Part shown: one piece after another, positions 509 through 61,670 of the stretch
How positions within the stretch are numbered: position 1 is the stretch's first letter
How the letters are laid out: every line of letters starts with the position of its first letter
Source of the DNA: Haliotis rufescens
Lineage: Eukaryota
Direction: 5' to 3'
DNA: 64,000 nt
Assembly (NCBI RefSeq): GCF_023055435.1
Contig: NW_025964001.1
Location: 3,286,001 to 3,350,000, forward strand
The notes under the pieces: generated by a model
Database searches by the model: none
Seen by the model: only the letters and a program-made list of their open reading frames with translations
What the model was told of the DNA's origin: nothing
Translations under genes and position numbers: made by a program

Positions 509-752
509 GACCCATGAACACCCGGGGTAGAAGAGGTCTTCAGCAACCCTTTCTTGACGTAAAAGGCGACTAACGGTATCGGGTGGTCAGGCTCGTTGAC
601 TTGATTAATGTATGCCATCGTATCCCAATTACGTGGATCGATGCTCATGACATCAATCACCGGACTTTCTTTTCCAGACTCGTTTATTTACAGACCGCAG
701 TAATATAGCTGGAATATCGCTGAGTGCGGCGTTAAACAACAAACAAACAAAC
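509..752 (+). mobile_element. SINE-like family A copy (non-tRNA head)
   Basis: Matches other copies: CCGGGGTAGAA.AGGTCTTCAGCAACCC...AGGCGACTAACG...GCTGGAATAT.GCTGAGTGCGGCGTTAAAC followed by an (AAAC)n tail. Confidence 0.85.
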
Positions 753-2228
753 CTACCTTACTGGTACTGTGAGTGAGTCTAAGCTGAAAAAAAACTGCAA
801 ACACCAACAACGAATAACCATTTCTTATTTGTTTTATTTTGAGCCACCATCAAACATGAGTGTATACTTAATGCTGCCTGACTGTTTATATTCGACTTGA
901 GGATAAACCAGTCACACAGACAAAATATATTGATTTTGTAAAGAATAACATTTCTCATCAATCAGACACCGAGTGTGTTAACAGCACTGACATTACCAGA
1001 TCCGCGGATATCCTGACTTAAGCTTAAGTTCCCCTCGATGGCACAGGCCCAAGTAGGCTCGTGAACAGAACAACATCGACGACTAGATGGCAGGGCTCCA
1101 ACCTTGGAGCCGACCGTCGGCTTATCGCCGCATCACGCTGGGCTCCCAATATCCTGCTCAAGAGGATGTCACGGCAGAGGATTAAGTCGCACGCATTTGA
1201 AAGTTTAAACAAGATTTAATGCCTCTATTGACACATATAGAATAGGCACGGCACGAATACCATGCGTGGGCCACGGCGATGTGGATAAAGAGGGCCAGAA
1301 AAAGTACTAGCGTATTATGAAGAACCAAAGGGTTACTAACACCGGTGCAGGAAGGAGAAACTATATCATAAGCTTCGATCCGACGCCGGGAGGGGAGATT
1401 GATTCCCTCTGCACCTGTCATCAACATCGGTGACGAGAGTCTTTTCAACCATACACTTTCTGCAGGACTGTTTTTTTTGTCCTTTACAAATGTTAAATCG
1501 TTAAAAATGAGACCATATGTCCTGATGTTCATTTGCGGGGTTGCTATGACGATATATCCTTAATCACATGTCTGGTATTTTATCGAAAAAATTCTTTAAA
1601 AGTTATTATGCTTCAGACTTTCGAAAAGGAAAAATATAGCCTGCAGCAAGAATTGCATTGTTGCAAGGTGTTTTTCTTCAACCAAAAAGCAGGTTCATAT
1701 TTTTAAATGAAATATATCTGGTTATTAATATATTAATATTTAGTCTCGCTTCAAAATCCCAGATCCTAAACACAAACTTACACACGTTCCTTGTCCCATA
1801 AGTTTGACATGTTTTGGTCATAACATGTTTAGAATTGTGTTTAACAGCTAAACGTGTTTATGGTCTAAATGTGTATACAACCCATGAAATTCATTGTAAG
1901 TATTTTTTAAAAGGGGTGCATTTTATGAGTTTCATGGGACTACATTATTGTGTGTATGGTGGTGGGTGGAATAAAAGCTATTTTAGCAGTATGAATGGAT
2001 TAATGTTTGGGTGGGTTGGTGGTGGTAACTAAACAAAGTTAAGGGTCTATCGTAGTCAGCTTCCTGTATGTGAGAAATACTTCTAGTCAACATATTTATT
2101 TTTTAAGAACACATAAATGTTTAAACCTCGGCGGAATACGAACCTGCAACCTCTTCTTGTGTAGTCCCTCATCACGGGTGTCAGCTATCCTTGCCACCAT
2201 TACCTGAGTTAGGTCGTTGTAAGTCCTG

Positions 2229-2335
2229 GGCCCACTTGAACAAAGCGATCTTAGCGCGATGACTTTTGTAAGCCTATGTTAAAGTATTGGAGTTAAGATC
2301 ATCTTAGCGATAAGATCGCTTTGTGCAAGTGGGCC
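2229..2335. mobile_element. Short MITE with ~25-bp terminal inverted repeats (possibly PIF/Harbinger-type)
   Basis: Left GGCCCACTTGAACAAAGCGATCTTA; right TAAGATCGCTTTGTGCAAGTGGGCC (one mismatch). Flanks CTG/TTG fit a 3-bp TSD. Superfamily is inferred. Confidence 0.7.
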
Positions 2336-2728
2336 TTGGTGGCATAGGAGTTATGCGAGTGCCTGTGAATCTGTAAACTTTAAACATGTTTATAATCAAA
2401 ACAATGAACAATGGTCCTGTGAACTGTGTTCGAAGACTTGCTACATATTTATTACATCTGTTTAAGGTACATGCAACATTTATGTTGACTCAACCCATTA
2501 CATTATACCATACATGATGTGATTAATATTTTAAGCCAATTTATTTCTGTGACTTTAGACTCTTCGTTTCTAAATCGTGTAACGTCTCACCGCGCCAAGA
2601 AGAACTGGTATGCCTATTGTGCTATGGGCCACTGGCCTCCAAGTGCAGAAATACAGTCTCATGCCTCATCTCGTGTATCATGTATCATGTTTAGGTGGTC
2701 TTTAGGCTGTGAGACTCATTCATTTAAG

Positions 2729-3079
2729 GTGAGGTGAAATGGGGTTTAACGTCGCGTCCAAGATTATTGCACTTATATAGCGACGTGCATGTACGTGTGT
2801 GTGTTTGTGTGGCTGCTTGTACTAGTCCGGACTGATGCCGATTTATAGTGCTAGCTCACTGAGATACCATGCCGCAGTTTAACATGAATACCCCACTCAG
2901 ACACAGTATACTGACTCCGAGCCGACCAGTCCTTGTTTTAGCCCCTTAATGCCGAGCGCCAGACAGGGTAACAACAAGTACCATCTTTTAACGTCTTTTG
3001 GTATGACGCGGCCGGGGATCGAACCCCGGACCTTCCGCTCTCCGGGCGGACGCTCTACCACAAGACCACGGAGGCGGTC
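2729..3079 (-). mobile_element. tRNA-derived SINE family B (Meta/MESC-type central domain)
   Basis: Minus strand has A box (TGGTCTTGTGGTAGAGCG) and B box (GGTTCGATCCC), central GGTACTTGTTGTTACCCTGTCTGGCGCTCGGCATTAAGGGG...GTCAGTATACTGTGTCTGAGTGGGG, and a (CACCT)n tail. 12-bp TSD CATTCATTTAAG at 2717-2728 and 3080-3091. Domain name recalled from MetaSINE consensus, not searched. Confidence 0.9.
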
Positions 3080-3239
3080 CATTCATTTAAGACTAAATGC
3101 GTTTAGATAGAACACACATGTGTATTCCGTTTAGAATGTATCACATTCCTAATCATGTTTAGACATGAACATGTTTCAGGTGTTTACATTCTTAACACAT
3201 TTTGTACAGCTCAAGGTCTTTAGGTGTTTGTTTGTATAT

Positions 3240-3246
3240 GTGTGTG

Positions 3247-3294
<48 letters not shown>

Positions 3295-3298
3295 TGTG
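3240..3298. repeat. (TGCG)n microsatellite
   Basis: Direct reading. Confidence 0.95.
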
Positions 3299-3684
3299 TC
3301 CTACACCAGCAATGATATCAATGGATGTATTCACAAATCTGTTCATCAAAACCTAGTCAGATCTTTCTATATTTACCTTATACACAACACAAAGTGAATC
3401 GATTTGATATTCGTGAAGTCAGACGTACCAACCAGCACGATTCTACGCTCTACTGTCTCCCAGCATTCGTGGTGACCGAGCAATTGTTATCGGCCAATTT
3501 GGACGTCATCATATTCCATCCATCATCCAGAGAACGCAGAAAGTAGCTTGGCCTCCGAGTGGATATGACATTGACGGACACAATGATCCTAATGATTGAT
3601 ACCCCAGGACAAAGATGACCAGACACTGACCGGGGTCATCCTGTTACAGCTGGTCTGTGTGTAGGCTGGTTCTGCTGTCTTCTT

Positions 3685-4140
3685 TTGTTTGTTTGTTGTT
3701 TAACGCCGCACTCAGCAATATTCCAGCTAAATGACGGCGGTCTGTAAATAATCGAGTCTGGACCACACAATCCATTGATTGACATCATGAGCATTGATCT
3801 ACGCAATTGGGATACGATGCCATTCATCAACCAAGTCAGCGAGTCTGACCACCCGATCCCGTTAGTCGCCTCTTACGACAAGCATAGTCACTTTTTATGG
3901 CAAACATGAGTTCCTGAAGACCTATTCTAACCCGTGTCAATCTATATGACGGCGGTCTGTAAATTATCGATTCCAGGCCAGACAATCCAGTGACTGACAT
4001 TATAAGCATCAATCTACGCAACTGGGATATAATGACATGCATCAACCAAGTCAGCGAGCATGACCACCCGATCCCGTAAGTCGCCTCTTACAACAAGCAT
4101 GGGTTGCTGAAGACCTATTCTAACCCGGATCTTCCCGGGG
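3685..4140 (-). mobile_element. Two head-to-tail SINE family A copies (3685-3934 and 3942-4140)
   Basis: Both are reverse complements of the family A body. The second lacks the 3' tail but keeps the 5' head (minus strand CCCGGGAAGATCCGGGTTAGAATAGGTCTTCAGC). Confidence 0.85.
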
Positions 4141-4299
4141 GCCAAGCACCATGGTTTTGTACATGATGGCTAAAATGAGGGGTCGGTGCTCAAGCTGTCG
4201 ACAAGCTACTTATCTCCCTTACCTCACACACACTGTTCCATAGAATATTACGTACCAGTTATATGTTACCCTGGCTACATCGAATGTGATCACTCGCTG

Positions 4300-4543
4300 G
4301 GCACACACACGCAGACACAAGCACACACACAGACACACACGCACAGACACAGACACACACGAACACAGACACACCGTCGCACGCACGCAGGCACACAGGG
4401 AGACACNNNNNNNNNNNNNNNNNNNNNNNNNNNNNNNNNNNNNNNNNNNNNNNNNNNNNNNNNNNNNNNNNNNNNNNNNNNNNNNNNNNNNNNNNNNNNN
4501 NNNNNNNNNNNNNNNNNNNNNNNNNNNNNNNNNNNNNNNNNNN
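4300..4543. repeat. CA-rich microsatellite followed by an N gap (4407-4543)
   Basis: Direct reading. Confidence 0.9.
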
Positions 4544-4650
4544 TGGTCTCTGGATTCTGTCATTGGATCCCTGCCTCTGTTTCGTCTTGCCACCGCGATA
4601 AAGCTGGAATTCAACTGACAGCGGCGTTGAACAACATGCACTCACTCACA
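4544..4650 (+). mobile_element. SINE 3' fragment with the shared tail
   Basis: CCGCGATAAAGCTGGAATTCAACTGACAGCGGCGTTGAACAACATGCACTCACTCA resembles the common tail. The 5' part is lost in the gap. Confidence 0.6.
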
Positions 4651-4769
4651 GTGCCCCAAACAATGAAACAAACAAACTGCATAAAAATAACGTTATCCCC
4701 CGCCGTGATATTATTGCAATGTTGCTATAAGCGGCGTCACTCTTTTAAAATACGAGTAATCCATAACAG

Positions 4770-6970: not shown

Positions 6971-7136
6971 TTGATTGATTGAGTGTGGTTTTACGCCGCT
7001 TTTAGCAATATTCCAGCAATATCACGGCGGGGGACACCAGAAATGGGCTTCACACATTGTACCCATGTCGGGAATTGAACCCGGGTCTTCGGCGTGACGA
7101 GCGAACGCTTTAACCACTAGGCTACCCGACCGCCCC
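6971..7136 (-). mobile_element. Short tRNA(Asp)-like SINE family D
   Basis: Minus strand GGTAGCCTAGTGGTTAAAGCGTTCGCTCGTCACGCCGAAGACCCGGGTTCAATTCCC plus shared tail. TSD TGAAACAGGGA(T/C)CAA at 6956-6970 and 7137-7151. Confidence 0.92.
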
Positions 7137-7631: not shown

Positions 7632-7797
7632 GTGAGTGAGTGAGTATGGTTTTACGCCGCTTTTAGCAATATTCCAGCAATATCACGGCGGGGGACACCA
7701 GAAATGGGCTTCACACATTGTACCCATGTCGGGAATCGAACCCGGGTCTTCCGCGTGACGAGCGAACGCTTTAACCACTAGGCTACCCGACAGCCCC
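7632..7797 (-). mobile_element. SINE family D
   Basis: Near-identical to 6971-7136. TSD TTATCTCAG(G/A)AGA. Confidence 0.92.
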
Positions 7798-37761: not shown

Positions 37762-38391
37762 GGTGGCTACAGTGTGTGATCTGCAAGGCTGATTATGTGC
37801 CTTCGTGTCAGAATAGGTCCTCATTAAGCCCGTGCTTGTCGTAAGGGTCGGCTAATGAGGATCGGTGGCCACAGTGTGTGATCTGCAAGGCTGATTATGT
37901 GCCTTCGTGTCAGAATAGGTCCTCATTAAGCCCGTGCTTGTCGTAAGGGTCGGCTAATGAGGATCGGTGGCTACAGTGTGTGATCTGCAAGGCTGATTAT
38001 GTGCCTTCGTGTCAGAATAGGTCCTCATTAAGCCCGTGCTTGTCGTAAGGGTCGGCTAATGAGGATCGGTGGCCACAGTGTGTGATCTGCAAGGCTGATT
38101 ATGTGCCTTCGTGTCAGAATAGGTCCTCATTAAGCCCGTGCTTGTCGTAAGGGTCGGCTAATGAGGATCGGTGGCTACAGTGTGTGATCTGCAAGGCTGA
38201 TTATGTGCCTTCGTGTCAGAATAGGTCCTCATTAAGCCCGTGCTTGTCGTAAGGGTCGGCTAATGAGGATCGGTGGCTACAGTGTGTGATCTGCAAGGCT
38301 GATTATGTGCCTTCGTGTCAGAATAGGTCCTCATTAAGCCCGTGCTTGTCGTAAGGGTCGGCTAATGAGGATCAGTGGCCACAGTGTGTGA
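37762..38391. repeat. 102-bp tandem repeat, 6 near-identical units, partly derived from the SINE family A head
   Basis: Units start at 37771, 37873, 37975, 38077, 38179 and 38281. Each contains AGAATAGGTCCTCA..GCTTGTCGTAAG.G.CG.CTAA..GGATCGG. Confidence 0.95.
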
Positions 38392-40030: not shown

Positions 40031-40129
40031 TATTATTACTTTATATGCCTGGCTGATGGGCTGATACATATAATGGGTGATTCTTAAACACTTTCCATCT
40101 ATACTTCTGGTCAATTATTTTCTTCCCCA

Positions 40130-40391
40130 GTATAGATTCCGGGGTAGAATAGGTCTTCAGCAACCCATGCTTGCCGTAAAAGGTGATATGCTTGTCGTAA
40201 AAGGCAACTAACGGGATCGGGTGGTCAGGCTCGCTGACTTGGTTGATGCATGTCATTGATCCCAATTGCGTGGATCGATGCTCATGATGTCAATCACTGG
40301 ATTGTCTGGTCCAGACTCGTTATTTAAAGACCGCCGTCATATAGCTGGAATATTGCTTAGTGCAGTGTTAAACAACAAAACAACAACAACC
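40130..40391 (+). mobile_element. SINE family A with an internally duplicated TGCTTG(C/T)CGTAAAAGG hairpin segment
   Basis: Matches family A; (ACA)n tail. Confidence 0.88.
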
Positions 40392-43347: not shown

Positions 43348-43696
43348 GTGAGTTGTGTTTTATATTATATCATAATCGTAAACACGTGTTACATATGCTA
43401 AAACGGTAACAACGGAATGCGATTAAACACAGTTTCGAGAAACCTAAGCAGTCAGTGAAAGCTAGAAGAAATTGACTAATAGTTGCCAGGGAACGGTTTA
43501 AAACTATTGAGCTGTGTGGGTGAAGAATGAAGTTATCATTATGATCGGTGATCACCAAGGGTCTGGTCTTTTTCTGTCATTGGCCATTTTTTTAACTTGT
43601 TACATTTAAAACAGAAAGGAATAAGAGCTGACGCTGTTGTGAGCGATATTTCCAAATTCAATTTCATAAAATGTCAGAAACATAAAAGCAGCTACA

Positions 43697-45235
43697 TCAT
43701 GGCTATCATTGTGAGACACATTACAACAGCTGTATCGTGGCAATAATTGACACACACATTAGAACAGCTGTATGGTGGTCATCATTGTCAGACACATTAC
43801 AACAGCTGTATGGTGGTCATCATTGTCAGACACATTACAACAGCTGTATCGTGGACATCATTGTTAGACACATTACAACAGCTGTATCGTGGACATCATT
43901 GTCAGACACATTACAACAGCTGTATCGTGGACATCATTGTCAGACACATTACAACAGCTGTATCATGGCTATCATTGACACACACATTACAACAGCTGTA
44001 TCGTGGCCATCATTGTCAGACACATTACAACAGCTGTATCGTGGACATCATTGTCAGACACATTAGAACAGCTGTATCGTGGCCATTATTGTCAGACACA
44101 TGAAAAACAGCTGTATCGTGGACATCATTTTGAGACACATTACAACAGCTGTTTCGTGGTCATCATTGTCAGACACATTACAACAGCTGTATCGTGGCCA
44201 TCATTGTCAGACACATTACAACAGCTGTATCGTGGACATCATTGTCAGACACATTACAACAGCTGTATCATGGCTATCATTGACACACACATTACAACAG
44301 CTGTATCGTGGCCATCATTGTCAGACACATTACAACAGCTGTATCGTGGACATCATTGTCAGACACATTACAACAGCTGTATCGTGAACACCATTGTCAG
44401 ACACATTACAACAGCTGTATCGTGGCCATCATTGTCAGACACATTACAACAGCTGTATCGTGGACATCATTGTGAGACACATTACAACAGCTGTATCATG
44501 GCTATCATTGTCAGACACATTACAACAGCTGTATCGTGGACATCATTGTCAGACACATTACAACAGCTGTATCGTGGCCATCATTGTCAGACACATTACA
44601 ACAGCTTTATCGTGGACATCATTGTGAGACACATTAGAACAGCTGTATCGTGGACATCATTGTCAGACACATTACAACAGCTGTATCGTGGCCATCATTG
44701 TCAGACACATTACAACAGCTGTATCGTGGACATCATTGTCAGACAAATTACAACAGCTGCATCGTGGCCATCATTGTCAGACACATTACAACAGCTGTAT
44801 CGTGGACATCATTGTCAGACACATTACAACAGCTGTATCGTGGCCATCATTGTCAGACACATTACAACAGCTGTATCGTGGACATCATTGTCAGACACAT
44901 TACAACAGCTGTATGGTGGTTATCATTGTCAGACACATTACAACAGCTGTATCGTGAACATCATTGTTAGACACATTACAACAGCTGTATGGTGGTTATC
45001 ATTGTCAGACACATTACAACAGCTGTATCGTGGACATCATTGTTAGACACATTTCAACAGCTGTATCGTGGACATCATTGTCAGACATATAATAACAGCT
45101 GTGTCGTGGACATCATTGTCAGACAAATTACAACAGCTGTATCGTGGCCATCATTGTCAGACACATTACAACAGCTGTATCGTGGCCATCATTGTCAGAC
45201 ACATTACAACAGCTGTATCGTGGACATCATTGTCA
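43697..45235. repeat. 38-bp minisatellite ACATTACAACAGCTGTATCGTGG(A/C)CATCATTGTCAGAC, about 40 units
   Basis: Period 38; the ORFs repeat a 38-aa cycle. Confidence 0.97.
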
Positions 45236-45284
45236 GGGGTATTTCAAGGCAAATATCTCGCCCACTATTGCATTATTTGTTATT

Positions 45285-45978
45285 TTCATTTCAACAGCTG
45301 AACCACTATTGTCAATAGGCACTACAACAGCTAAAGCACGCCCGCTATTGTCTAGAGTATTATTACAACAGCTAAAGCACGTCCGCTATTGTCAAGAGTA
45401 TTATTACAACAGCTAAAGCACGTCCGCTATTATCACCAGCACTACAACAGCTAAAGCACGCCCGCCATTGTCAATAGTATTAGAACAGCTAAAACACGGC
45501 CATAACTGTCAAAAGCATTATTACAACAGCTAATGCACCTCCGCTATTGTCACCAGCACTACATCAGCTAAAGCACATCCACTATTGTCAACAGCATTAT
45601 TTTAACAGCTAAAACACGGTCATTATTGTCAACAGCATTATTTCAACAGCTAAAACACGGTCATTATTGTCAACAGCATTATTTCAACAGCTAAAACACG
45701 GTCATTATTGTCAACAGCATTATTTCAACAGCTAAAACACGGTCATTATTGTCAACAGCATTATTTCAACAGCTAAAACACGGTCATTATTGTCAACAGC
45801 ATTATTTCAACAGCTAAAACACGGTCATTATTGTCAACAGCATTATTTCAACAGCTAAAACACGGTCATTATTGTCAACAGCATTATTTCAACAGCTAAA
45901 ACACGGTCATTATTGTCAACAGCATTATTTCAACAGCTAAAACACGGTCATTTTTGTCAACAGCATTATTACAACTAT
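45285..45978. repeat. 38-41-bp minisatellite, ending in a homogeneous 41-mer CATTATTTCAACAGCTAAAACACGGTCATTATTGTCAACAG
   Basis: About 9 almost identical 41-mers at 45595-45970. Confidence 0.95.
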
Positions 45979-48209
45979 ATCATGGCCACGTCTGTCATTT
46001 TCTGCACTCGTCCTGAGCAATAGTTTCAGCTAGATTGATTGTGTAAGGGTGGCAGGGACCAGAGCTTTTACAAAGACTGTTGGAAATAGACTCCATACTG
46101 ACACCACACAGACCTACTCCACAGATTACACCATCACCAGCAAAGGACTCGTGTAAATCAGTGTCGCAACTAGAGGACCTACCGTTGGCGAAATCAAAAT
46201 GTCTGTTTAACAGATTAGTCTATTCACTATAACGTACCAGCATGTATTGTGGAGGTTGAAGCTTGGTGATATTGGGTGGCATTTGGTTGGCCGTGGATCT
46301 GTCTTGCGATCATTGGACGGGGTGGACTCCACAGAGAAGAAATCACCATGCTTGTTCCTCTGACACAACAAGGTGGTCCTAACGTCATGGATTACAAGGC
46401 CCGTCCACACGGAGTGGTTCATAATACCTCTTCTTCTAACATGTTAAAACAGTATGGTGACGTCACGTTATTGTAATTGCAGTTAATTCCGAGCCAGGCC
46501 TTCATTGGTCATTCTGAACGAGCGTCAGGCAACACACGCTTACTTTTAGTGCAACCTGTGCGACTGGCGGGTGCTACCGTAGGGCAGGACATGCTTACCT
46601 TTTGGCGAAAACCATGTGTCATCACCGATTTTGAGTGATCCATTCACATTTTTATCCCTATTTTGCCTTCCGCGAATGTTTTTTTTTTCTGCGGGTAATC
46701 GAGACTGGTTGTTCTCTGACGTTGACATTTTATATTTTTACAAGTAAAACTTACTGGACTACAAGTCAATGTGCAAAATTATATAGAAATTATTTAAGAA
46801 ACATAACGTGGTTCAAGTCGAAGAAATCACTCTAATCTTCCCTTCGGGGATCTTGATTCTACTTCCAGCATCAACAGGTTCAAGGAACTTCTGCATTACA
46901 TCACAGATAGGAACTGGCCTCTTAGATACAGTCATTACCTAACTCCTTTTTAACATGCTTAGGACGTCTTGATGAGACGTGGTTATGGGCTCAAGTTTCA
47001 GAACAGACTTCTGGCCCACCTGAGAAATTCCAAGGGTAGCAAGACAGAACGTTTCTCAGCAGCTCATCTGGTTAATGCCACGACTCGTGCAAGCTTAAAT
47101 GTGCGCCATCAGTAGACATACGTGTCACGGAATCTTGATAGTCAGCGGACAATGGTAGATTGGTGTGGATTCAGATGTGGATGTCCTGACCAATGCATTG
47201 TTTTGCAAAGGAACCTATGTTTTGGAGCTTGTCACACTTTAATTGTAACCTTTCTACCGCGTTGATGTAGTTTGGTGCTTACATTTCCAGTATGTTGTTG
47301 CAACGTGCTTTGAAAACTGAAGATAGGTGGGCACACTCAAGGTAAACTGCTTTGGTATTATCAACTAACTTAGAGATTGACTGATATATAGAGAATCTCA
47401 CCCGAGTATTTGACATCAAATATATCAACGAGTGTTGAGATTTTATTTATCATCCAACATCATTCTTTCAACTTCTTCAGTTTGTAGACAGTAATAAACA
47501 GTGTCTTAAGCGTAAAAAGTAGCAGTAGCAGAGCCATTAGTGATGTCATTTGATGATAACCAATGACGTCACAATGGTCTGCAAAGCGTTGTGGTGCAAT
47601 TTCATTGCAGCGATATCTACAATAGCTTGATCTTACCCAAGCAATATCTCCTGTGGTAGCCAGTATTTTTTGGGATGATAAACATTCATATCTAACAAAT
47701 ATGTATTTTTCACTTCATACATAACATTCCTCCTTATGAATCAAGACGCCATTCTATCTGAGTGGGGTCTGTCATCGGACCCGGCTATTACGACATGTTT
47801 CCCTATCTTGTCACATATGTAATCTGCCTTGCATTCGATTTCTCGTCAAGTCAGCTAACACAATGTGCATTTGGAAAATCAACCTTCTTCATCAAAGTTC
47901 CTTGAAAGCTTGTGGCATTTCTCGGGACTAAACCTCCCTGAAAATGAAAGGTCATTCTGCAACAACAGACCAATCAAAATGGCTTTAAGTCAAGCCGCCA
48001 CACAGAGCAAGATCTAAAGGAGTTTTGCACTCCACATATGAATATTACGTAACAGCCCTCTGTAAGTTTCCATAAAGAGATCTTAGGGCAACGACTATCA
48101 TCAATCTGTGTATAGAGTTAATGCCGTCGAAGATCGCCTTGTGCCACGGGGCTCCGACGGAGAGAGTTTAAAGTGAACACCACGGGATTACGTCAAGAGA
48201 ATTGTTATT

Positions 48210-49492
48210 TTGTATACCGTCCATGTAGTTGAATACCGTCAATGTAGTTTTATATCGTCCATGTCGTTGTATACCGTTCCTGTAGTTGGATACCGCCCAT
48301 ATAGTTGGTTACATCGTATATATTGTTTAGATACCGTCCATATAATTGGGTACGTCATGACTATTGTGAGGATACGTCATGACTATTGTTTGGATACGCC
48401 ATGAATATTGTTTGGATACGATATGAATATTGTTTGGATACGTCATAAATATTGTTTGAATATGTTATTAATGGTGTTTGGATACGTTATGAATATTGTT
48501 TGGATATGTCATAAATATTGTTTGGATATGTCATGTTGTTTGCATACGTCATGAATATTTTTTGGATACGTGACGCACATTGTTTGGATACGTCATGAAT
48601 GTTGTTTGTATATGTCATGAATATTGTTTTGATACGCTATGAATACAGGTTCGATACGTCATGAACATTGTTTGGATACGTCATGAATACTGTTTTGATA
48701 CGTCATAAATATTGTTTGGATACGTCATGAATAATTTTTGGATACGTCATGAATGTCGTTGGATACGTTATGAATAATGTTTGGATACGTCATGAATGTT
48801 GTTTGGATACGTCATGAATACTGTTTGGATATGGCATGAATATTGTTTGGATATGTCATGAATACTGTTTTATGCTTCATTAATATTGTTTGGATACGTC
48901 ATGTTGTTAGGATACGTCATGAATATTGTTTGGGTACGTCATGAATATTGTTTGGATATGTAATGTTGTTTCGATACGTCATGAATGTTGTTTGGATACT
49001 TCATGAATACTGTTTCGATATGGCATGGATATTGTTTGGATATGTCATGAATACTGTTTGTATGCTTCATTAATATTGTTTGGATACGTCATGTTGTTAG
49101 GATACGTCATGAATATTGTTTGGATACGTCATGTTGTTTGGATACGTCATGAATATTGTTTGGATATGTAATATTGTTTCGATACGTCATGAATATTGTT
49201 TGGGTACGTCATGAATATTGTTTGGATATGTAATGTTGTTTCGATACTTCATGAATATTGTTTGGATACGTCAAGAATATTGTTTCGATACGTCGTGTTG
49301 TTTGGATACGTCATGAATATTGTTTGGATACGTCATGAATATTGTTTGGATATGTAATGTTGTTTCGATACGTCATGAACATTGTTTGGGTACGTCATGA
49401 ATATTGTTTGGATACGTCATGTTGTTAAGATACGTCATGAATATTGTTTGGATACGTCATGAATATTATTTGAATATGTTATGTTGTTTGGA
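48210..49492. repeat. 22/18-bp minisatellite GAATATTGTTTGGATACGTCAT
   Basis: Period 22 with interspersed 18-bp deletion variants. Confidence 0.95.
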
Positions 49493-52400
49493 TCTATCTG
49501 CCTAGTCACCTCTGCGGGATCAGCTCAAACACAAACGCATGCTCCAAGCACATGGTATAGTATTACCCCAGTCAATGGATCTGTGTGGCCATTCAAATTG
49601 TCATTCTCAGCGCCGTGGGGAGTATACAGACAGTATTGGATTGCGTCAAATTACCTTCTAATCCTATCGGGTACCCAACTGTGTGACCAGAGGCACAATT
49701 CGAAACAGTCATTTGCTTAAAGAGACGAATGTTTTACAACCATGTTTAAGTGTTGGCAGACCGGATAAATAAATAGACAAATAAATGAATCTTGATCTGA
49801 GTCTTAATATATCCCAATTCTATAAACATCTCCAGCAATGATTCCCATTACTACGATGTATGGTTTACACTGGAATAATTATTTCAAATACAAAATACTC
49901 TTCTGACACGACAGCTATTCATTAAACGAGGAAATGCATTAAGTTCCCCCGATACATGCGTGTGCAGGGGATTGAGAGAGACGCGGCTGTGAAAGAAATA
50001 GACGTCGACAAGGATGTCCGTGCGTAATGGTACTTAAACGGAGAGGGTACAGCCATCTAGAGAACGCTTTCTCACGACCAGTGTTCATGAACATCAAGTG
50101 ATTTTCCTCGCGTGTCGAAAGGGAGCATATTTGCCGGGTTACCATGGCAAAGTTAATCTATTTCCTAAGGCACCAACAAACCGACGTTTTTTTAACTAAA
50201 TGGTGATTCATTTTCCGTGGATGTAGTGCGAGAGTACCTAAGTGAAACAGATGCTCTGCCAGGAGAGGGGGTAGTGGCGATCGAGTTTACAGGGGATAAC
50301 AGACACAGACAAACACAGAAACAGACACAGACACACACTGACACAGACACACACTGACACAGACATACACTGACACAGACACACACAGACGTACACATAG
50401 ACAGACNNNNNNNNNNNNNNNNNNNNNNNNNNNNNNNNNNNNNNNNNNNNNNNNNNNNNNNNNNNNNNNNNNNNNNNNNNNNNNNNNNNNNNNNNNNNNN
50501 NNNNNNNNNNNNNNNNNNNNNNNNNNNNNNNNNNNNNNNNNNNNNNNNNNNNNNNNNNNNNNNNNNNNNNNNNNNNNNNNNNNNNNNNNNNNNNNNNNNN
50601 NNNNNNNNNNNNNNNNNNNNNNNNACACACAAACACACACGCACAGACACACACACGCACAGACACAGACATACACATAGACACAGACACACACACACAT
50701 ACATTGACACAGACACACACACAAACGTATACGGACATACACACAGACACAGAGACACGCAGACACACAGACATAGACATACACACACACGGGCACAGAC
50801 ACACACAGACGTCATGGCTATCATTGTGAGACACATTACAACAGCTGTATCGTGGCAATAATTGACACACACATTAGAACAGCTGTATGGTGGTCATCAT
50901 TGTCAGACACATTACAACAGCTGTATGGTGGTCATCATTGTCAGACACATTACAACAGCTGTATCGTGGACATCATTGTTAGACACATTACAACAGCTGT
51001 ATCGTGGACATCATTGTCAGACACATTACAACAGCTGTATCGTGGACATCATTGTCAGACACATTACAACAGCTGTATCATGGCTATCATTGACACACAC
51101 ATTACAACAGCTGTATCGTGGCCATCATTGTCAGACACATTACAACAGCTGTATCGTGGACATCATTGTCAGACACATTAGAACAGCTGTATCGTGGCCA
51201 TTATTGTCAGACACATGAAAAACAGCTGTATCGTGGACATCATTTTGAGACACATTACAACAGCTGTTTCGTGGTCATCATTGTCAGACACATTACAACA
51301 GCTGTATCGTGGCCATCATTGTCAGACACATTACAACAGCTGTATCGTGGACATCATTGTCAGACACATTACAACAGCTGTATCATGGCTATCATTGACA
51401 CACACATTACAACAGCTGTATCGTGGCCATCATTGTCAGACACATTACAACAGCTGTATCGTGGCCATCATTGTCAGACACATTACAACAGCTGTATCGT
51501 GAACACCATTGTCAGACACATTACAACAGCTGTATCGTGGCCATCATTGTCAGACACATTACAACAGCTGTATCGTGGACATCATTGTGAGACACATTAC
51601 AACAGCTGTATCATGGCTATCATTGTCAGACACATTACAACAGCTGTATCGTGGACATCATTGTCAGACACATTACAACAGCTGTATCGTGGCCATCATT
51701 GTCAGACACATTACAACAGCTTTATCGTGGACATCATTGTGAGACACATTAGAACAGCTGTATCGTGGACATCATTGTCAGACACATTACAACAGCTGTA
51801 TCGTGGCCATCATTGTCAGACACATTACAACAGCTGTATCGTGGACATCATTGTCAGACAAATTACAACAGCTGCATCGTGGCCATCATTGTCAGACACA
51901 TTACAACAGCTGTATCGTGGACATCATTGTCAGACACATTACAACAGCTGTATCGTGGCCATCATTGTCAGACACATTACAACAGCTGTATCGTGGACAT
52001 CATTGTCAGACACATTACAACAGCTGTATGGTGGTTATCATTGTCAGACACATTACAACAGCTGTATCGTGAACATCATTGTTAGACACATTACAACAGC
52101 TGTATGGTGGTTATCATTGTCAGACACATTACAACAGCTGTATCGTGGACATCATTGTTAGACACATTTCAACAGCTGTATCGTGGACATCATTGTCAGA
52201 CATATAATAACAGCTGTGTCGTGGACATCATTGTCAGACAAATTACAACAGCTGTATCGTGGCCATCATTGTCAGACACATTACAACAGCTGTATCGTGG
52301 CCATCATTGTCAGACACATTACAACAGCTGTATCGTGGACATCATTGTCAGGGGTATTTCAAGGCAAATATCTCGCCCACTATTGCATTATTTGTTATTT

Positions 52401-55400
52401 TCATTTCAACAGCTGAACCACTATTGTCAATAGGCACTACAACAGCTAAAGCACGCCCGCTATTGTCTAGAGTATTATTACAACAGCTAAAGCACGTCCG
52501 CTATTGTCAAGAGTATTATTACAACAGCTAAAGCACGTCCGCTATTATCACCAGCACTACAACAGCTAAAGCACGCCCGCCATTGTCAATAGTATTAGAA
52601 CAGCTAAAACACGGCCATAACTGTCAAAAGCATTATTACAACAGCTAATGCACCTCCGCTATTGTCACCAGCACTACATCAGCTAAAGCACATCCACTAT
52701 TGTCAACAGCATTATTTTAACAGCTAAAACACGGTCATTATTGTCAACAGCATTATTTCAACAGCTAAAACACGGTCATTATTGTCAACAGCATTATTTC
52801 AACAGCTAAAACACGGTCATTATTGTCAACAGCATTATTTCAACAGCTAAAACACGGTCATTATTGTCAACAGCATTATTTCAACAGCTAAAACACGGTC
52901 ATTATTGTCAACAGCATTATTTCAACAGCTAAAACACGGTCATTATTGTCAACAGCATTATTTCAACAGCTAAAACACGGTCATTATTGTCAACAGCATT
53001 ATTTCAACAGCTAAAACACGGTCATTATTGTCAACAGCATTATTTCAACAGCTAAAACACGGTCATTTTTGTCAACAGCATTATTACAACTATATCATGG
53101 CCACGTCTGTCATTTTCTGCACTCGTCCTGAGCAATAGTTTCAGCTAGATTGATTGTGTAAGGGTGGCAGGGACCAGAGCTTTTACAAAGACTGTTGGAA
53201 ATAGACTCCATACTGACACCACACAGACCTACTCCACAGATTACACCATCACCAGCAAAGGACTCGTGTAAATCAGTGTCGCAACTAGAGGACCTACCGT
53301 TGGCGAAATCAAAATGTCTGTTTAACAGATTAGTCTATTCACTATAACGTACCAGCATGTATTGTGGAGGTTGAAGCTTGGTGATATTGGGTGGCATTTG
53401 GTTGGCCGTGGATCTGTCTTGCGATCATTGGACGGGGTGGACTCCACAGAGAAGAAATCACCATGCTTGTTCCTCTGACACAACAAGGTGGTCCTAACGT
53501 CATGGATTACAAGGCCCGTCCACACGGAGTGGTTCATAATACCTCTTCTTCTAACATGTTAAAACAGTATGGTGACGTCACGTTATTGTAATTGCAGTTA
53601 ATTCCGAGCCAGGCCTTCATTGGTCATTCTGAACGAGCGTCAGGCAACACACGCTTACTTTTAGTGCAACCTGTGCGACTGGCGGGTGCTACCGTAGGGC
53701 AGGACATGCTTACCTTTTGGCGAAAACCATGTGTCATCACCGATTTTGAGTGATCCATTCACATTTTTATCCCTATTTTGCCTTCCGCGAATGTTTTTTT
53801 TTTCTGCGGGTAATCGAGACTGGTTGTTCTCTGACGTTGACATTTTATATTTTTACAAGTAAAACTTACTGGACTACAAGTCAATGTGCAAAATTATATA
53901 GAAATTATTTAAGAAACATAACGTGGTTCAAGTCGAAGAAATCACTCTAATCTTCCCTTCGGGGATCTTGATTCTACTTCCAGCATCAACAGGTTCAAGG
54001 AACTTCTGCATTACATCACAGATAGGAACTGGCCTCTTAGATACAGTCATTACCTAACTCCTTTTTAACATGCTTAGGACGTCTTGATGAGACGTGGTTA
54101 TGGGCTCAAGTTTCAGAACAGACTTCTGGCCCACCTGAGAAATTCCAAGGGTAGCAAGACAGAACGTTTCTCAGCAGCTCATCTGGTTAATGCCACGACT
54201 CGTGCAAGCTTAAATGTGCGCCATCAGTAGACATACGTGTCACGGAATCTTGATAGTCAGCGGACAATGGTAGATTGGTGTGGATTCAGATGTGGATGTC
54301 CTGACCAATGCATTGTTTTGCAAAGGAACCTATGTTTTGGAGCTTGTCACACTTTAATTGTAACCTTTCTACCGCGTTGATGTAGTTTGGTGCTTACATT
54401 TCCAGTATGTTGTTGCAACGTGCTTTGAAAACTGAAGATAGGTGGGCACACTCAAGGTAAACTGCTTTGGTATTATCAACTAACTTAGAGATTGACTGAT
54501 ATATAGAGAATCTCACCCGAGTATTTGACATCAAATATATCAACGAGTGTTGAGATTTTATTTATCATCCAACATCATTCTTTCAACTTCTTCAGTTTGT
54601 AGACAGTAATAAACAGTGTCTTAAGCGTAAAAAGTAGCAGTAGCAGAGCCATTAGTGATGTCATTTGATGATAACCAATGACGTCACAATGGTCTGCAAA
54701 GCGTTGTGGTGCAATTTCATTGCAGCGATATCTACAATAGCTTGATCTTACCCAAGCAATATCTCCTGTGGTAGCCAGTATTTTTTGGGATGATAAACAT
54801 TCATATCTAACAAATATGTATTTTTCACTTCATACATAACATTCCTCCTTATGAATCAAGACGCCATTCTATCTGAGTGGGGTCTGTCATCGGACCCGGC
54901 TATTACGACATGTTTCCCTATCTTGTCACATATGTAATCTGCCTTGCATTCGATTTCTCGTCAAGTCAGCTAACACAATGTGCATTTGGAAAATCAACCT
55001 TCTTCATCAAAGTTCCTTGAAAGCTTGTGGCATTTCTCGGGACTAAACCTCCCTGAAAATGAAAGGTCATTCTGCAACAACAGACCAATCAAAATGGCTT
55101 TAAGTCAAGCCGCCACACAGAGCAAGATCTAAAGGAGTTTTGCACTCCACATATGAATATTACGTAACAGCCCTCTGTAAGTTTCCATAAAGAGATCTTA
55201 GGGCAACGACTATCATCAATCTGTGTATAGAGTTAATGCCGTCGAAGATCGCCTTGTGCCACGGGGCTCCGACGGAGAGAGTTTAAAGTGAACACCACGG
55301 GATTACGTCAAGAGAATTGTTATTTTGTATACCGTCCATGTAGTTGAATACCGTCAATGTAGTTTTATATCGTCCATGTCGTTGTATACCGTTCCTGTAG

Positions 55401-57414
55401 TTGGATACCGCCCATATAGTTGGTTACATCGTATATATTGTTTAGATACCGTCCATATAATTGGGTACGTCATGACTATTGTGAGGATACGTCATGACTA
55501 TTGTTTGGATACGCCATGAATATTGTTTGGATACGATATGAATATTGTTTGGATACGTCATAAATATTGTTTGAATATGTTATTAATGGTGTTTGGATAC
55601 GTTATGAATATTGTTTGGATATGTCATAAATATTGTTTGGATATGTCATGTTGTTTGCATACGTCATGAATATTTTTTGGATACGTGACGCACATTGTTT
55701 GGATACGTCATGAATGTTGTTTGTATATGTCATGAATATTGTTTTGATACGCTATGAATACAGGTTCGATACGTCATGAACATTGTTTGGATACGTCATG
55801 AATACTGTTTTGATACGTCATAAATATTGTTTGGATACGTCATGAATAATTTTTGGATACGTCATGAATGTCGTTGGATACGTTATGAATAATGTTTGGA
55901 TACGTCATGAATGTTGTTTGGATACGTCATGAATACTGTTTGGATATGGCATGAATATTGTTTGGATATGTCATGAATACTGTTTTATGCTTCATTAATA
56001 TTGTTTGGATACGTCATGTTGTTAGGATACGTCATGAATATTGTTTGGGTACGTCATGAATATTGTTTGGATATGTAATGTTGTTTCGATACGTCATGAA
56101 TGTTGTTTGGATACTTCATGAATACTGTTTCGATATGGCATGGATATTGTTTGGATATGTCATGAATACTGTTTGTATGCTTCATTAATATTGTTTGGAT
56201 ACGTCATGTTGTTAGGATACGTCATGAATATTGTTTGGATACGTCATGTTGTTTGGATACGTCATGAATATTGTTTGGATATGTAATATTGTTTCGATAC
56301 GTCATGAATATTGTTTGGGTACGTCATGAATATTGTTTGGATATGTAATGTTGTTTCGATACTTCATGAATATTGTTTGGATACGTCAAGAATATTGTTT
56401 CGATACGTCGTGTTGTTTGGATACGTCATGAATATTGTTTGGATACGTCATGAATATTGTTTGGATATGTAATGTTGTTTCGATACGTCATGAACATTGT
56501 TTGGGTACGTCATGAATATTGTTTGGATACGTCATGTTGTTAAGATACGTCATGAATATTGTTTGGATACGTCATGAATATTATTTGAATATGTTATGTT
56601 GTTTGGATCTATCTGCCTAGTCACCTCTGCGGGATCAGCTCAAACACAAACGCATGCTCCAAGCACATGGTATAGTATTACCCCAGTCAATGGATCTGTG
56701 TGGCCATTCAAATTGTCATTCTCAGCGCCGTGGGGAGTATACAGACAGTATTGGATTGCGTCAAATTACCTTCTAATCCTATCGGGTACCCAACTGTGTG
56801 ACCAGAGGCACAATTCGAAACAGTCATTTGCTTAAAGAGACGAATGTTTTACAACCATGTTTAAGTGTTGGCAGACCGGATAAATAAATAGACAAATAAA
56901 TGAATCTTGATCTGAGTCTTAATATATCCCAATTCTATAAACATCTCCAGCAATGATTCCCATTACTACGATGTATGGTTTACACTGGAATAATTATTTC
57001 AAATACAAAATACTCTTCTGACACGACAGCTATTCATTAAACGAGGAAATGCATTAAGTTCCCCCGATACATGCGTGTGCAGGGGATTGAGAGAGACGCG
57101 GCTGTGAAAGAAATAGACGTCGACAAGGATGTCCGTGCGTAATGGTACTTAAACGGAGAGGGTACAGCCATCTAGAGAACGCTTTCTCACGACCAGTGTT
57201 CATGAACATCAAGTGATTTTCCTCGCGTGTCGAAAGGGAGCATATTTGCCGGGTTACCATGGCAAAGTTAATCTATTTCCTAAGGCACCAACAAACCGAC
57301 GTTTTTTTAACTAAATGGTGATTCATTTTCCGTGGATGTAGTGCGAGAGTACCTAAGTGAAACAGATGCTCTGCCAGGAGAGGGGGTAGTGGCGATCGAG
57401 TTTACAGGGGATAA

Positions 57415-58310
57415 CAGACACAGACAAACACAGAAACAGACACAGACACACACTGACACAGACACACACTGACACAGACATACACTGACACAGACACACA
57501 CAGACGTACACATAGACAGACNNNNNNNNNNNNNNNNNNNNNNNNNNNNNNNNNNNNNNNNNNNNNNNNNNNNNNNNNNNNNNNNNNNNNNNNNNNNNNN
57601 NNNNNNNNNNNNNNNNNNNNNNNNNNNNNNNNNNNNNNNNNNNNNNNNNNNNNNNNNNNNNNNNNNNNNNNNNNNNNNNNNNNNNNNNNNNNNNNNNNNN
57701 NNNNNNNNNNNNNNNNNNNNNNNNNNNNNNNNNNNNNNNACACACAAACACACACGCACAGACACACACACGCACAGACACAGACATACACATAGACACA
57801 GACACACACACACATACATTGACACAGACACACACACAAACGTATACGGACATACACACAGACACAGAGACACGCAGACACACAGACATAGACATACACA
57901 CACACGGGCACAGACACACACAGACGTATACGGACATACACAGAGACACAGAGACACACAGACATAGACATACACACACGGGCACAGACACACACACAGA
58001 CGTATACGGACAGACACAGAGACACANNNNNNNNNNNNNNNNNNNNNNNNNNNNNNNNNNNNNNNNNNNNNNNNNNNNNNNNNNNNNNNNNNNNNNNNNN
58101 NNNNNNNNNNNNNNNNNNNNNNNNNNNNNNNNNNNNNNNNNNNNNNNNNNNNNNNNNNNNNNNNNNNNNNNNNNNNNNNNNNNNNNNNNNNNNNNNNNNN
58201 NNNNNNNNNNNACACGGACACACACGGAGACACAGACACAGATATAGACACGGACACACACAGACAGACAGAGACACGGACACAGACACAAACAGACAGA
58301 CATACATACA
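57415..58310. repeat. CA/CAGA-rich microsatellite with N gaps (57522-57739, 58027-58211); partial copy at 50300-50811
   Basis: Direct reading. Confidence 0.9.
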
Positions 58311-58689
58311 TATCTGTTTTCATTAACTGTCACTATGTCACTGTATACCTTGTCCAATAACCAAACGAGGGGACACGCTTTACTGTAAATGAGAAATTGA
58401 AGCTAATAGTTGAATAATCCCTTTATCTGATCGTCTTAGCATTCTACATGTAGCTTAAATCAATTCATTTGAAGCAGCTAGGATGTCTTAATTGACTTGT
58501 GGAGTAGTCNNNNNNNNNNNNNNNNNNNNNNNNNNNNNNNNNNNNNNNNNNNNNNNNNNNNNNNNNNNNNNNNNNNNNNNNNNNNNNNNNNNNNNNNNNN
58601 NNNNNNNNNNNNNNNNNNNNNNNNNNNNNNNNNNNNNNNNNNNNNNNNNNNNNNNNNNNNNNNNNNNNNNNNNNNNNNNNNNNNNNNNN

Positions 58690-58909
58690 AGGACTAGTGC
58701 CGGTTTTATAGTGCTAGCCCACTGACATACCATGCCGCAGTTTAACATAAATACCCCACTCAGTCACAGTATACCGACTTCAAGCCAACCAGTCCTTGTT
58801 TTGTCCCCCTTAATGCCGAGAGCCAGGCAGGATAACAACAAATACCATCTTTTAGCGTCTTTTGGCATGACGCGGCCGGGGATCGAACCATTACACCACA
58901 GAGGCGGTT
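58690..58909 (-). mobile_element. SINE family B, partial (tail lost in N gap 58510-58689)
   Basis: GGACTAGTGCCG..TATAGTGCTAGCCCACTGA..GACGCGGCCGGGGATCGAACC. Confidence 0.85.
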
Positions 58910-59058
58910 AATTTCTTGAGATAATGAAAGAATATGCATCGTTTTTCTTACTGATGGCTTACACAATCAGATCAATAATTTCTTGAGCATGGGGTTGGGA
59001 TTTACTTCGTGTTTCTAATACTTGTGGATTGTTGTACCCAGTTTTCTAAATAGTTTAC

Positions 59059-59333
59059 AGGACACGGGTGGCCCAGTCGTCTAAGGCACCGCAATTCGCA
59101 GTGCAGAGTTGCGTCCCTTAGGCACGCCAGAAACCAATGATCGTGGTACGAATCCCGGTTCGCCCCGATAATGTTTCCAAGTTTGTCAGCACCATACCCG
59201 TGCTCGTGGGTTTCACCGAAGTGGTAAACGTCTGAGACCTGCATCGCTTCGGGCTTTGCTCCCACATTAAGCTGACACGAAGTGATGTAATTGAAATACT
59301 GTTCAAAGCGGCAGTAAACCCAACTCACTCACT
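59059..59333 (+). mobile_element. SINE family C
   Basis: GGGTGGCCCAGTCGTCTAAGGCACCG..GGTACGAATCCCGG..AAGCGGCAGTAAACCCAACTCACTCA. Confidence 0.88.
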
Positions 59334-59525
59334 AACTAAATTATTAGGGTAGTCAGAAATGCTCGACAGAAGGGCTTCTCGTTAGAAGCTCCTGTTGCTT
59401 GGCAGCTCGGTATTGCGTTATGTCCTAATTACTTTCCGAGTCGGTGTAACTTGGTGTTACCGCCAAGGCCAAGTCCACCCTGCGTTCCCCTCACAGGGGT
59501 ACAGCTAATAATAACAGCTGTAGTC

Positions 59526-59724
59526 GTTGTTGTTGGTTTGTTGTTTAACGCCAAACCCAGCAATATTCCAGCTATATGACGGCGGTCTGTAAATAATCGA
59601 GTCTGGACCAGACAACCCAGTGATTGACATCACGAGCATCGATCCACGCAATTGAGGTACGATGACATCTATCAACCAAGTCAGCGAGCCAGACCACCCG
59701 ATCCCGTTAGTTGCCTCTGACGAC
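59526..59724 (-). mobile_element. SINE family A, 5'-truncated
   Basis: Reverse complement of the family A body and tail. Confidence 0.85.
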
Positions 59725-59805
59725 ATTCACAATGGATACTAAACCAACTGGCTCACAATTATTTTACGACGCTTCACTAGGTTTGTTAATGTGAAACTTT
59801 TTATA

Positions 59806-60069
59806 TGAGTGAAGTTGGTTTTACCGCCGCTTTGGGGAGTATTCCAGTTATATCACAGCGTGTCAGCTTAATGTGGAAGGAAAGCCCGAAGTGAATCAGG
59901 TCTCCGACATGTACTACTTTGGTGAAACCCACGAGCACGGGTGTGGTGCTGACAAAAAAAAAACAGGTCGAACAAGCATTCGAACCCATGAGCGTAGGAT
60001 TCTGGCACACAAAGGGGCGTAACTCTACCCAGTGAATTGCGATGCCTTCGACGACTGGCTCATCCTGTC
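59806..60069 (-). mobile_element. Diverged SINE family C
   Basis: CCGCCGCTTT..TATTCCAGTTATATCACAGCGTGTCAGCTTAATGTGG..GGTGAAACCCACGAGCACGGG. Confidence 0.8.
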
Positions 60070-60497
60070 CGCTAATGTCTTGACGTGACAGACATAAAAA
60101 TGAAGTCGGCATTTTAATTGACATTTGCAGCTCTGTCTGTAGAGAATAATGGCTGCTGGCTGACACGAACATCGTCTGCAAGTGGAGCTGCTCGTCTTAC
60201 AAATCAAAAATTCACTCTACACCAGTAACACAACATACAGTTGCCCTCGAGAGAGAGAGTCACATTGCACACCCCACTCCATCGGTTCTCCAACCATAAG
60301 GTCAAATTCAGTGGACCTACAGCCTGGTAGCTAAAACCTAAGCAAAAATCACGTTAAAACAATCACTTGGTTTATTTGCCAAGGTGATACATACAAAACA
60401 CACCTGTCCAAAAAAGGTCAAAACAAAATAGCTATGATACATAGAGGATTCATCACGAGTGTTTTTTTTAATATGGGAAATATCAACCGAATCTTAG

Positions 60498-60812
60498 TTA
60501 ATCGGTATTTGCCGAGCCTTTGTTTTGATCTAGGATCACACCATCGATCATGCCGTCCTCAACAGCCACAAATCTTCCTTGGGCATCTTTCGGCTTTGTG
60601 TTCGTCGTCTGCTTCGCCGTGCTCGACGATGGCGTTTCGATGATGAAACTTTGGCCACAGGGAAGTTTTGATAATCTGCCTTCATCACAGTCAAATTCAA
60701 ATTCGGTACCATCAACCTGTAACCTGTAATATCCATTTGTCAACAGGGATATCACTGTAGCACTTCCCCTTTGATCTATTCAAACATTGTCTCCAACATC
60801 AAAGGTATCCAT
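60498..60812 (-). pseudogene. Disabled ORF N-terminus, possibly from a Crypton/DUF3504-type tyrosine-recombinase element
   Basis: MDTFDVGDNV*IDQRGSATVISLLTNGYYRLQVDGTEFEFDCDEGRL...GRFVAVEDGMIDGVILDQNKGSANTD*LRFG. The RF...NT..FG spacing resembles N-termini of DUF3504 proteins (recalled, unverified). Confidence 0.3.
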
Positions 60813-61385
60813 GTTGTTTGTAAACACCTACTCACGTGCACCGGCGAAAAAAGTCCCACTTCCGGTTATCTAATTTGCATATCTAATTTGCATACATATG
60901 TCATTGGGGTATGACATACATGTTTTTGTCATATGCTTGTGTCAGGGATAAATGCTTCAGTTAAATGATACTTAGTTTAATTATTCCAGCAATGTTCTAA
61001 TTGGTCATTACAACCATGTGTAAAGATGTTAATGAGTTTTATGTAGATGCTGTGATGGTGTCACAGTCGATGAGGTGGATCAATGCGTACTTGATTGTTC
61101 AAACCAATATTTCATTTAAAAGATGGCAGAGCCGCATGAATAGGCAATGTTATTGAAATGTTGAAAGCCCCGAAAATGTGGTAATGCCTTATCTTAAAGC
61201 AATATTTAAAGGACTGTTTGTGTCTGGTAATTTTTCTTGATGTTTTGACTACAGCTGCCAACAACGACTAGACTGTTATTGGTTACTGGAGACCTATTCT
61301 ACCCCGGATCTTCACGGTTAACTACCGGGGTATCTCACTTCTCAGCGTCTCAGGTAAAGTCTACACCACTTTTCCATGTAAACGG

Positions 61386-61670
61386 ACCCGTGAATGTCCG
61401 GGGTAGAATAGGTCTTCAGCATACCATGTTTGTCTTTCCGTGAATATCCGGGGTAGAATAGGTCATCAGCAACCCATGCTTGTCGTAAGAGGCGACTAAG
61501 GGGATCGGGCGGTCAGGCTCGCTGACTTGGTTGATGCATGTCATCGTATCCTAATTGCGTGGATAGATGCTCATGATGTCAATCACTGGATTTTCTAGTA
61601 CAGGATCAATTATTTACAGACCGCCGTCATACAGCTGGAATATTGCTTGGTGCGGCTTTGAACAACAAAC
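61386..61670 (+). mobile_element. SINE family A with a tandemly duplicated head; an inverted head fragment lies at 61289-61318
   Basis: CCGTGAA..TCCGGGGTAGAATAGGTC occurs at 61388 and 61438, and its reverse complement at ~61290-61317. Confidence 0.88.

Follow-up and report, generated by a model that had tools for sequence, protein, structure and literature searches.

A SINE head of Haliotis rufescens with a covarying double-pseudoknot fold is a candidate exoribonuclease-resistant RNA

The heads of short interspersed nuclear elements (SINEs) are defined as RNA polymerase III promoters, and the LP-SINEs are an unexplained exception. Their ~70-nt head derives from the 5' untranslated region (UTR) of a long interspersed nuclear element (LINE) and has been proposed to act as a promoter (Matetovici 2016, PMC4758252). 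The same paper reports a ~70-bp 5' domain common to Nimb-17_LMi, I-3_DR and RTE-9_CPB; its text describes neither a structure nor copies in viruses, and does not identify the partner LINE. A structured 5' end that shields retroelement RNA has been posited in the case of the R2 ribozyme (PMC11331408). Among viruses, exoribonuclease-resistant RNAs (xrRNAs) occur in 3' UTRs, often in tandem, and depend on a pseudoknot and a ring of 15-16 nt; a cellular xrRNA has been anticipated by the field (PMC8374639). In the exonuclease Xrn1, ~5 nt separate the surface from the active site (PMC12081666). Here, we analyze a SINE family, family A, that occurs in 64,000 nt of the genome of Haliotis rufescens (NW_025964001.1, positions 3,286,001 to 3,350,000 of the forward strand; hereafter the window, whose own numbering is used throughout). 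Judged from its sequence, family A fits the published LP-SINE class, and we give about even weight to the proposal that its head is a new fold of exoribonuclease-resistant RNA that would define the 5' ends of the element.

The support for a structured head is comparative. The head was studied in a MAFFT alignment that was not fitted to any structure and that contained 21 copies, 13 from retroelements and 8 from viruses; we chose the rows, one per family, and excluded the long-linker family F6, one garbled copy and a 102-bp array. Changes on both sides are seen at all seven pairs of the first pseudoknot pairing (PK1) and at all four pairs of P3, the 4-bp stem that directly follows it. The covariation score was 0.418, against 0.152 in shuffled alignments (0 of 500), a control that ignores relatedness in an alignment whose rows span retroelements and unrelated viruses; slid partners scored at most 0.123. 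RNAalifold predicted P3 and the downstream hairpin P4 unaided. In addition, the P3 loop can pair with bases downstream of a UAA triplet (PK2) in 16 of the 21 rows, with a permutation frequency of 117/200,000 that becomes 1,282/200,000 when five related rows are dropped and 16 are left. This count comes from the MAFFT alignment and replaces that of an automated motif descriptor, which mis-parsed tandem and long-linker copies (permutation 30/100,000). Single-sequence folding, carried out without pseudoknots on two copies from the window, gives the structure no support (z of +1.23 and +0.36). The invariance of P4 in the alignment follows from the selection of rows, and it is the LINE copies found through their protein that show its conservation. 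Taken together, the head is predicted to consist of two pseudoknots in series within ~70 nt, and the frequent G-U pairs mark the sense strand as the one that acts as RNA.

A first-pass annotation of the window, whose head consensus was correct, had already proposed an H-type pseudoknot in the head, and the covariation bears this out, although the eighth pair of that proposal (U-A) is better taken as an unpaired U plus the first P3 pair. The second half had been drawn as a stem-loop inside CCC/GGG. Those CCC/GGG pairs are predicted to be the second pseudoknot, reaching out from the P3 loop; the covarying stem is AGCA/UGCU (P3) rather than that of a simple stem-loop.

The starting points of the element copies provide a second line of evidence. 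Counting from the bulged U of pseudoknot 1, the base at -6 is conserved in family A (G in 27/42 copies of one sample, in which 30 source loci had been chosen by head similarity, and in 14/22 of another, scored from 30 copies chosen by hairpin alone), and -7 is random. Exact target duplications of at least 9 nt flank 11 of the 42 copies, which have (CAAA)n-like ends, and 7 of these 11 duplications end 5-6 nt before the bulged U. The same -6 boundary recurs in family F2 (A in 21/30, with 30 of 35 copies scored), in F3 (G in 18/20, with 20 of 33 scored) and in F6 (G in 5/6, with 6 of 28 scored). Since this boundary is constant while the distance from the U to the hairpin varies from 41 nt in family A through 48 nt in F2 and 61 nt in F3 to 82-110 nt in F6, the 5' end of these ribozyme-less SINEs, as read from their genomic copies, follows the knot and not a conserved sequence. 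Clustering of 5' ends at the motif, which the first-pass annotation had named as a test, is therefore found in families A, F2, F3 and F6.

Where did the head come from? The origin was traced with an ORF1-like protein located behind a metagenomic copy of the module (L073), so that the motif itself played no part in the search. Among the top 20 LINE loci retrieved from this genome, 19 carry the head ~500 nt before open reading frame (ORF) 1. Eight of these LINEs were fetched at full length; their ORF2 encodes an endonuclease, a reverse transcriptase and an RNase H (domain scan of one). The SINE head matches the 5' regions of all eight at 78-80% identity over 63 nt, and the SINE tail matches the 3' end of five of the eight over 32-35 nt at 83-91%. 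On the strength of these matches, family A reads as a LINE head, an unrelated body and a LINE-like tail. The expected bipartite LINE-5'/LINE-3' origin thus finds its counterpart in the RNase-H LINEs of this genome, where the motif also stands upstream of the LINE ORFs, as had been sought. The tandem 3' ends differ, being (CTCA)n in the local LINEs and (CAAA)n in the SINE, and for this reason the LINE that is the true partner probably belongs to a sister family of the local ones.

Several side observations concern the surroundings of the module. In family F1 (L060, L063, L108 and related copies), it lies directly upstream of a tRNA-like A box, so that the head is added in front of a tRNA head as in the scallop MESC SINEs. 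Downstream of the module, the LINE 5' UTRs found here and in two prokaryote-labelled assemblies (L164, L161, L184-L203) contain another conserved block that resembles a hairpin and is possibly a separate translation element. Small-RNA libraries, which are no test of 5' ends, yielded 16 reads that map to the SINE and, for the LINE, none that starts in the sense direction. In one small-RNA run, 127 antisense reads of ~30 nt with one start and a 5' U, resembling PIWI-interacting RNAs, fall on pseudoknot 1 of a LINE (L213:1460-1489); they are possibly a single molecule that was amplified.

Self-cleavage was the function that the first-pass annotation had put forward for the head, and a new ribozyme cutting 6 nt before the bulged U would account for the sharp 5' ends, would suit a compact double pseudoknot with invariant unpaired bases, and would have precedent in other non-LTR elements. 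Ruminski is said to have reported HDV (hepatitis delta virus) ribozymes in LINEs in 2011. However, the Rfam models give no match to the heads at the gathering threshold, nor at E<=10 across 61300-61750, where pistol, twister, hammerhead and the other Rfam ribozymes likewise score 0 matches at E<=10; nothing matches over the motif in the viral loci at E<=5, or in the LINE scans. Nor does the head have the HDV-like fold, a nested double pseudoknot (P1-P2-P3-P1.1-P4) with G1 at the 5' end, since its knots lie in series. What the HDV model does match, in all five local LINE loci scanned, is a segment upstream of the head (E 0.11-0.25, below gathering). Of 30 LINE copies retrieved with a downstream query, 28 start exactly at the G1 of this segment, 2 are truncated elsewhere and none starts at the site predicted for cleavage at the knot, where a second cutter would be redundant. 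Considering that a separate HDV-like ribozyme marks the LINE 5' end, the head is probably not the cutter. In addition, viral copies show no conservation around -6, and a self-cutter within RNA-virus 3' UTRs would sever the viral 3' ends. We consider a ribozyme in the head highly doubtful for these reasons. The broader claim that the head is a functional RNA is upheld, and 5' processing is still its favored function, by exonuclease stalling in place of self-cleavage.

At the very start of full-length RNase-H LINEs (L538-L545; G000 C445, C268, C2, C57, C68, C46, C124 and C157) is a minimal HDV-like ribozyme whose own P4 is almost absent, and in seven of the eight full-length LINEs the target duplication ends right before its G1. 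Several LINE families with divergent ORF1 have the same first ~200 nt.

The module is widely distributed outside this genome. An exact 18-mer of the head occurs at no fewer than 120 metagenome loci (at least 120); among the matches listed, 106 belong to four SINE-like families and 14 do not. All five of its matches in viral contigs have the upstream pseudoknot, and with relaxed patterns (in one such scan, 8 of 12 matches were true and 4 due to chance) the total comes to six distinct RNA-virus-type contigs and one DNA-virus contig of 212 kb. By Pfam, four of the six encode an RNA-dependent RNA polymerase, one only a tetravirus-type capsid, and one (L156) has no Pfam match. On the coding strand, the viral module starts 5-123 nt past the last stop codon and leaves 17-122 nt to the contig end, which need not be a genome end; it is tandem in L156 and in L240. 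Because the stem sequences differ from one viral copy to the next and none of the copies has a SINE body, these would not be fresh SINE insertions. A readthrough signal was considered and rejected, as no ORF longer than 29 codons follows the viral copies. In the DNA-virus contig, an intact module (L157:3981-4054) lies between two same-strand genes, with an NAD-dependent ligase nearby. Among prokaryote genomes there are five exact matches, one of them due to chance and four with the module in an animal-like context that points to host carry-over. A blastn search of a phage collection gave no match to the head. Looser viral scans gave no new member: one returned 21 matches, of which 4 were true and all known already, a second returned 8, of which 7 were already known, and two more had none among the matches listed. 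Model R1, applied to 239 of 240 listed loci, gave three weak matches, and the two inspected lie inside ORFs.

Another possibility is that the module binds ribosomes or initiation factors and supports cap-independent translation. Such an element would act like a 3' cap-independent translation element (3' CITE) in uncapped viruses, as a 5' UTR enhancer in ribozyme-cleaved LINE RNA and, in SINEs, as a ribosome tether comparable to the domain of Alu that binds the signal recognition particle proteins SRP9/14. The module indeed lies in the 3' UTRs of tombus-like viruses, which use 3' CITEs, and in the LINEs it is retained immediately after an HDV-like ribozyme whose cleavage would yield uncapped RNA; moreover, the P4 hairpin sequence is conserved between viruses and LINEs that were found without the motif. 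The use of 3' CITEs in the tombus-like group is also mentioned in PMC10520033. Translation, however, leaves the -6 end of the ribozyme-less families unexplained, and it is difficult to reconcile with a module that lies ~500 nt from the ORF1 start and is kept by non-coding SINEs. On balance this explanation seems unlikely, though far from negligible.

How might one fold serve in viral 3' UTRs, at the 5' ends of LINEs, whether or not these have a ribozyme, and in SINE heads? A block to exonucleases is favored here because this single activity would suit all of these places. The SINE would have taken its head from a LINE 5' end, and a SINE copy would be transcribed within host read-through RNA. 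The uncapped upstream part would then be degraded by Xrn1 or Xrn2, which would stall at pseudoknot 1, and the leftover unit-length RNA would be reverse-transcribed by the LINE enzyme that recognizes the shared tail. Viruses would obtain a protected 3' subgenomic RNA from the same fold, and LINEs that have an HDV-like ribozyme upstream would gain a second shield for their uncapped RNA. The viral copies agree with xrRNAs in location, being found in 3' UTRs or between genes, and in being tandem in two contigs. The last PK1 pair closes a stretch of 12-13 nt in all eight viral copies, or 14-15 nt with the closing pair, compared with rings of 15-16 nt in solved xrRNAs. The element ends at -6 are also counted in favor of this reading, given the ~5 nt between the surface and the active site of Xrn1 (PMC12081666). 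Judged against published descriptions, the head has neither the three-way junction nor the fall-back stem-loop nor the coremin hairpin-spacer of the known xrRNA classes, and it falls outside every Rfam ribozyme and every described xrRNA class. With somewhat less confidence than we attach to exonuclease resistance, we tentatively suggest a new structural class of xrRNA that has moved between RNA viruses, a DNA virus, LINEs and SINEs and that provides 5' maturation without a promoter or ribozyme.

A number of observations weigh against exonuclease resistance. PK2 is absent in 5 of the 21 rows, and some viral copies have a P1 of just 3 bp. Among the 13 non-viral rows, 8 have a spacer of 15-28 nt, and in F6 it reaches ~60-80 nt, so SINEs do not maintain the size of the ring. 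The boundary in F1 is blurred, from -4 to -6 (11 of 12 copies scored), and no stall product is seen in the HDV-bearing LINE copies, 0/30 of which start at the knot. P4, a strictly conserved hairpin ~40 nt further downstream, is unexplained by a mechanical ring and resembles a binding site for a protein or the ribosome. The module might instead be a platform for another host protein with a role in stability, localization or replication, the footprint of which would give the sharp 5' ends. This would account for the invariance of P4 and AGAAUA and for the fact that the commonest subfamily has its hairpin duplicated; as it names no candidate protein and makes no prediction that the present data test, we rate it very improbable. 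Finally, all four families begin with a purine, which is also what a transcription start would show. The trypanosome Pr77 segment is a promoter with a second role as RNA, and the head of family A might likewise be an internal RNA polymerase II promoter acting at the DNA level, possibly with a second RNA role. The position of the head at element 5' ends would fit such a promoter, which has already been proposed in print as the LP hypothesis (PMC4758252). Nevertheless, DNA recognition cannot produce compensatory changes with G-U pairs or copies in RNA-virus genomes, the 5' end is not at a fixed distance from conserved sequence, and the local LINEs start ~60 nt upstream, at the HDV G1, all of which makes a promoter quite improbable.

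Turning to the window itself, the 18-mer is matched 12 times when <=3 mismatches are allowed, where 0.06 matches are expected, and in the 1.33-Gb genome it has 23,648 exact matches, with 0 for the reversed control. All six heads named in the first-pass annotation (at 509, 4105-4140 (-), 40130, 61290 (-), 61388 and 61438) are present, and a covariance model built partly from family A itself gives 14 matches in the window, including the additional copies and the array in Table 1. As had been claimed, family A has no tRNA head (no tRNA model matches any copy, and the three tRNA matches in the window are other SINEs), and its 3' tail is common to tRNA-headed SINEs. The insertion at 61385 has an 8-nt target duplication that ends 6 nt before the bulged U. 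In the tandem array, the PK1 strands have changed together from A-U to G-C, the linker is long and the 5' strand of P1 is lost; a circularly permuted head was rejected in favor of a long-linker head in tandem.

Table 1. Coordinates of family A heads, their predicted structural parts and related features in the window
Feature	Position	Strand	Remarks
Family A (LP-type) SINE, full copy	509..752	+	structured head 509-582
Family A copy without P1, hairpin duplicated	3686..3949	-	head 3853-3949; absent from first pass
Family A copy	3942..4141	-	head 4068-4141; tail cut off by next copy
Tail segment of tRNA-headed SINE, common to family A	7004..7030	-	
Tail segment of second tRNA-headed SINE, common to family A	7665..7691	-	
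Six-unit 102-bp tandem array, variant head	37762..38391	+	absent from first pass
Family A copy, duplicated-hairpin subfamily	40125..40386	+	head 40125-40220; 5' end damaged
Family A copy, truncated within head	59536..59753	-	head 59698-59753; absent from first pass
Head fragment, first pseudoknot only, without hairpin	61274..61320	-	
5' duplicate of first pseudoknot, without hairpin	61385..61431	+	true 5' end of its insertion
Family A copy, complete head and LINE-like tail	61435..61680	+	head 61435-61508
Pseudoknot 1	61438..61467	+	P1 61438-61440 with 61449-61451; bulged U 61441
PK1	61442-61448 with 61461-61467	+	conserved AGAAUA 61455-61460
Pseudoknot 2 module	61468..61503	+	P3 61468-61471 with 61477-61480; P4 hairpin 61482-61496
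Pseudoknot 2 pairing	P3 loop 61472-61476 with 61500-61503	+	UAA 61497-61499

Other repeats were noted along the way. Of 30 copies retrieved with the 18-mer as the sole criterion, most have a 22-nt duplication of the P4 hairpin, and in such heads (window 40125-40220; L268-L297) the upstream hairpin copy has a C-A mismatch in its stem. A satellite of more than 40 units of 67 bp, formed from a SINE head without P1, ends in a normal SINE body (L255-L257, G000:C13:40872842-40877970). The same series of tandem arrays occurs twice in the window, ~7.1 kb apart (43672-49493 and 50820-56608), and is either a recent duplication or an assembly repeat.

The element class is thus a known one, the LP-SINE, and the covarying fold is undescribed. 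A literature search found only PMC4758252 on this head and nothing on its structure or viral copies; figures, bioRxiv supplements and most subscription papers lay outside the search, so a prior description may exist. If the exonuclease block is true, it explains how LP-SINEs obtain unit-length RNAs, amounts to a third way to make a SINE head, supplies the anticipated cellular xrRNA, in tens of thousands of copies, and links the RNA biology of retroelements with that of RNA viruses. Whatever its function, a covarying 70-nt fold that is absent from Rfam and common to viruses and retroposons is a small and directly testable target.

The head can finally be set against the three closest known systems. 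Like the HDV-like ribozymes at the 5' ends of non-LTR elements (R2, L1Tc/ingi), it is a 5' structured RNA that would free and protect uncapped RNA; the ribozymes have nested knots, whereas the head has knots in series and, in LINEs, a separate HDV-like ribozyme before it. The published LP-SINEs agree with family A in having a LINE 5' UTR head instead of a tRNA head, a tail shared with tRNA SINEs, and target duplications, and the scallop head in supplementary Figure S2 of PMC4758252, labelled 'Nimb-17 homology', agrees with it in the P1/AGAA/hairpin layout and in the GAGGCGACTAA end. In contrast to the LP-SINEs as presented in the text of that paper, the head described here covaries as RNA and occurs in viruses, and a LINE family that carries it has been found. 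With the viral xrRNAs (flavivirus 1a/1b/2, Luteo/Tombus and coremin), as described in PMC8374639, PMC10520033 and PMC12081666, the head shares a location at the start of viral 3' UTRs, tandem copies, a pseudoknot at the 5' edge, a patchy spread over unrelated viruses and an end fixed a few bases from the fold, an RNA end in their case and the ends of DNA copies in ours. It differs from them in having no three-way junction and no coremin consensus, in being built of two H-type knots with an inserted hairpin, and in residing in cellular retroelements.

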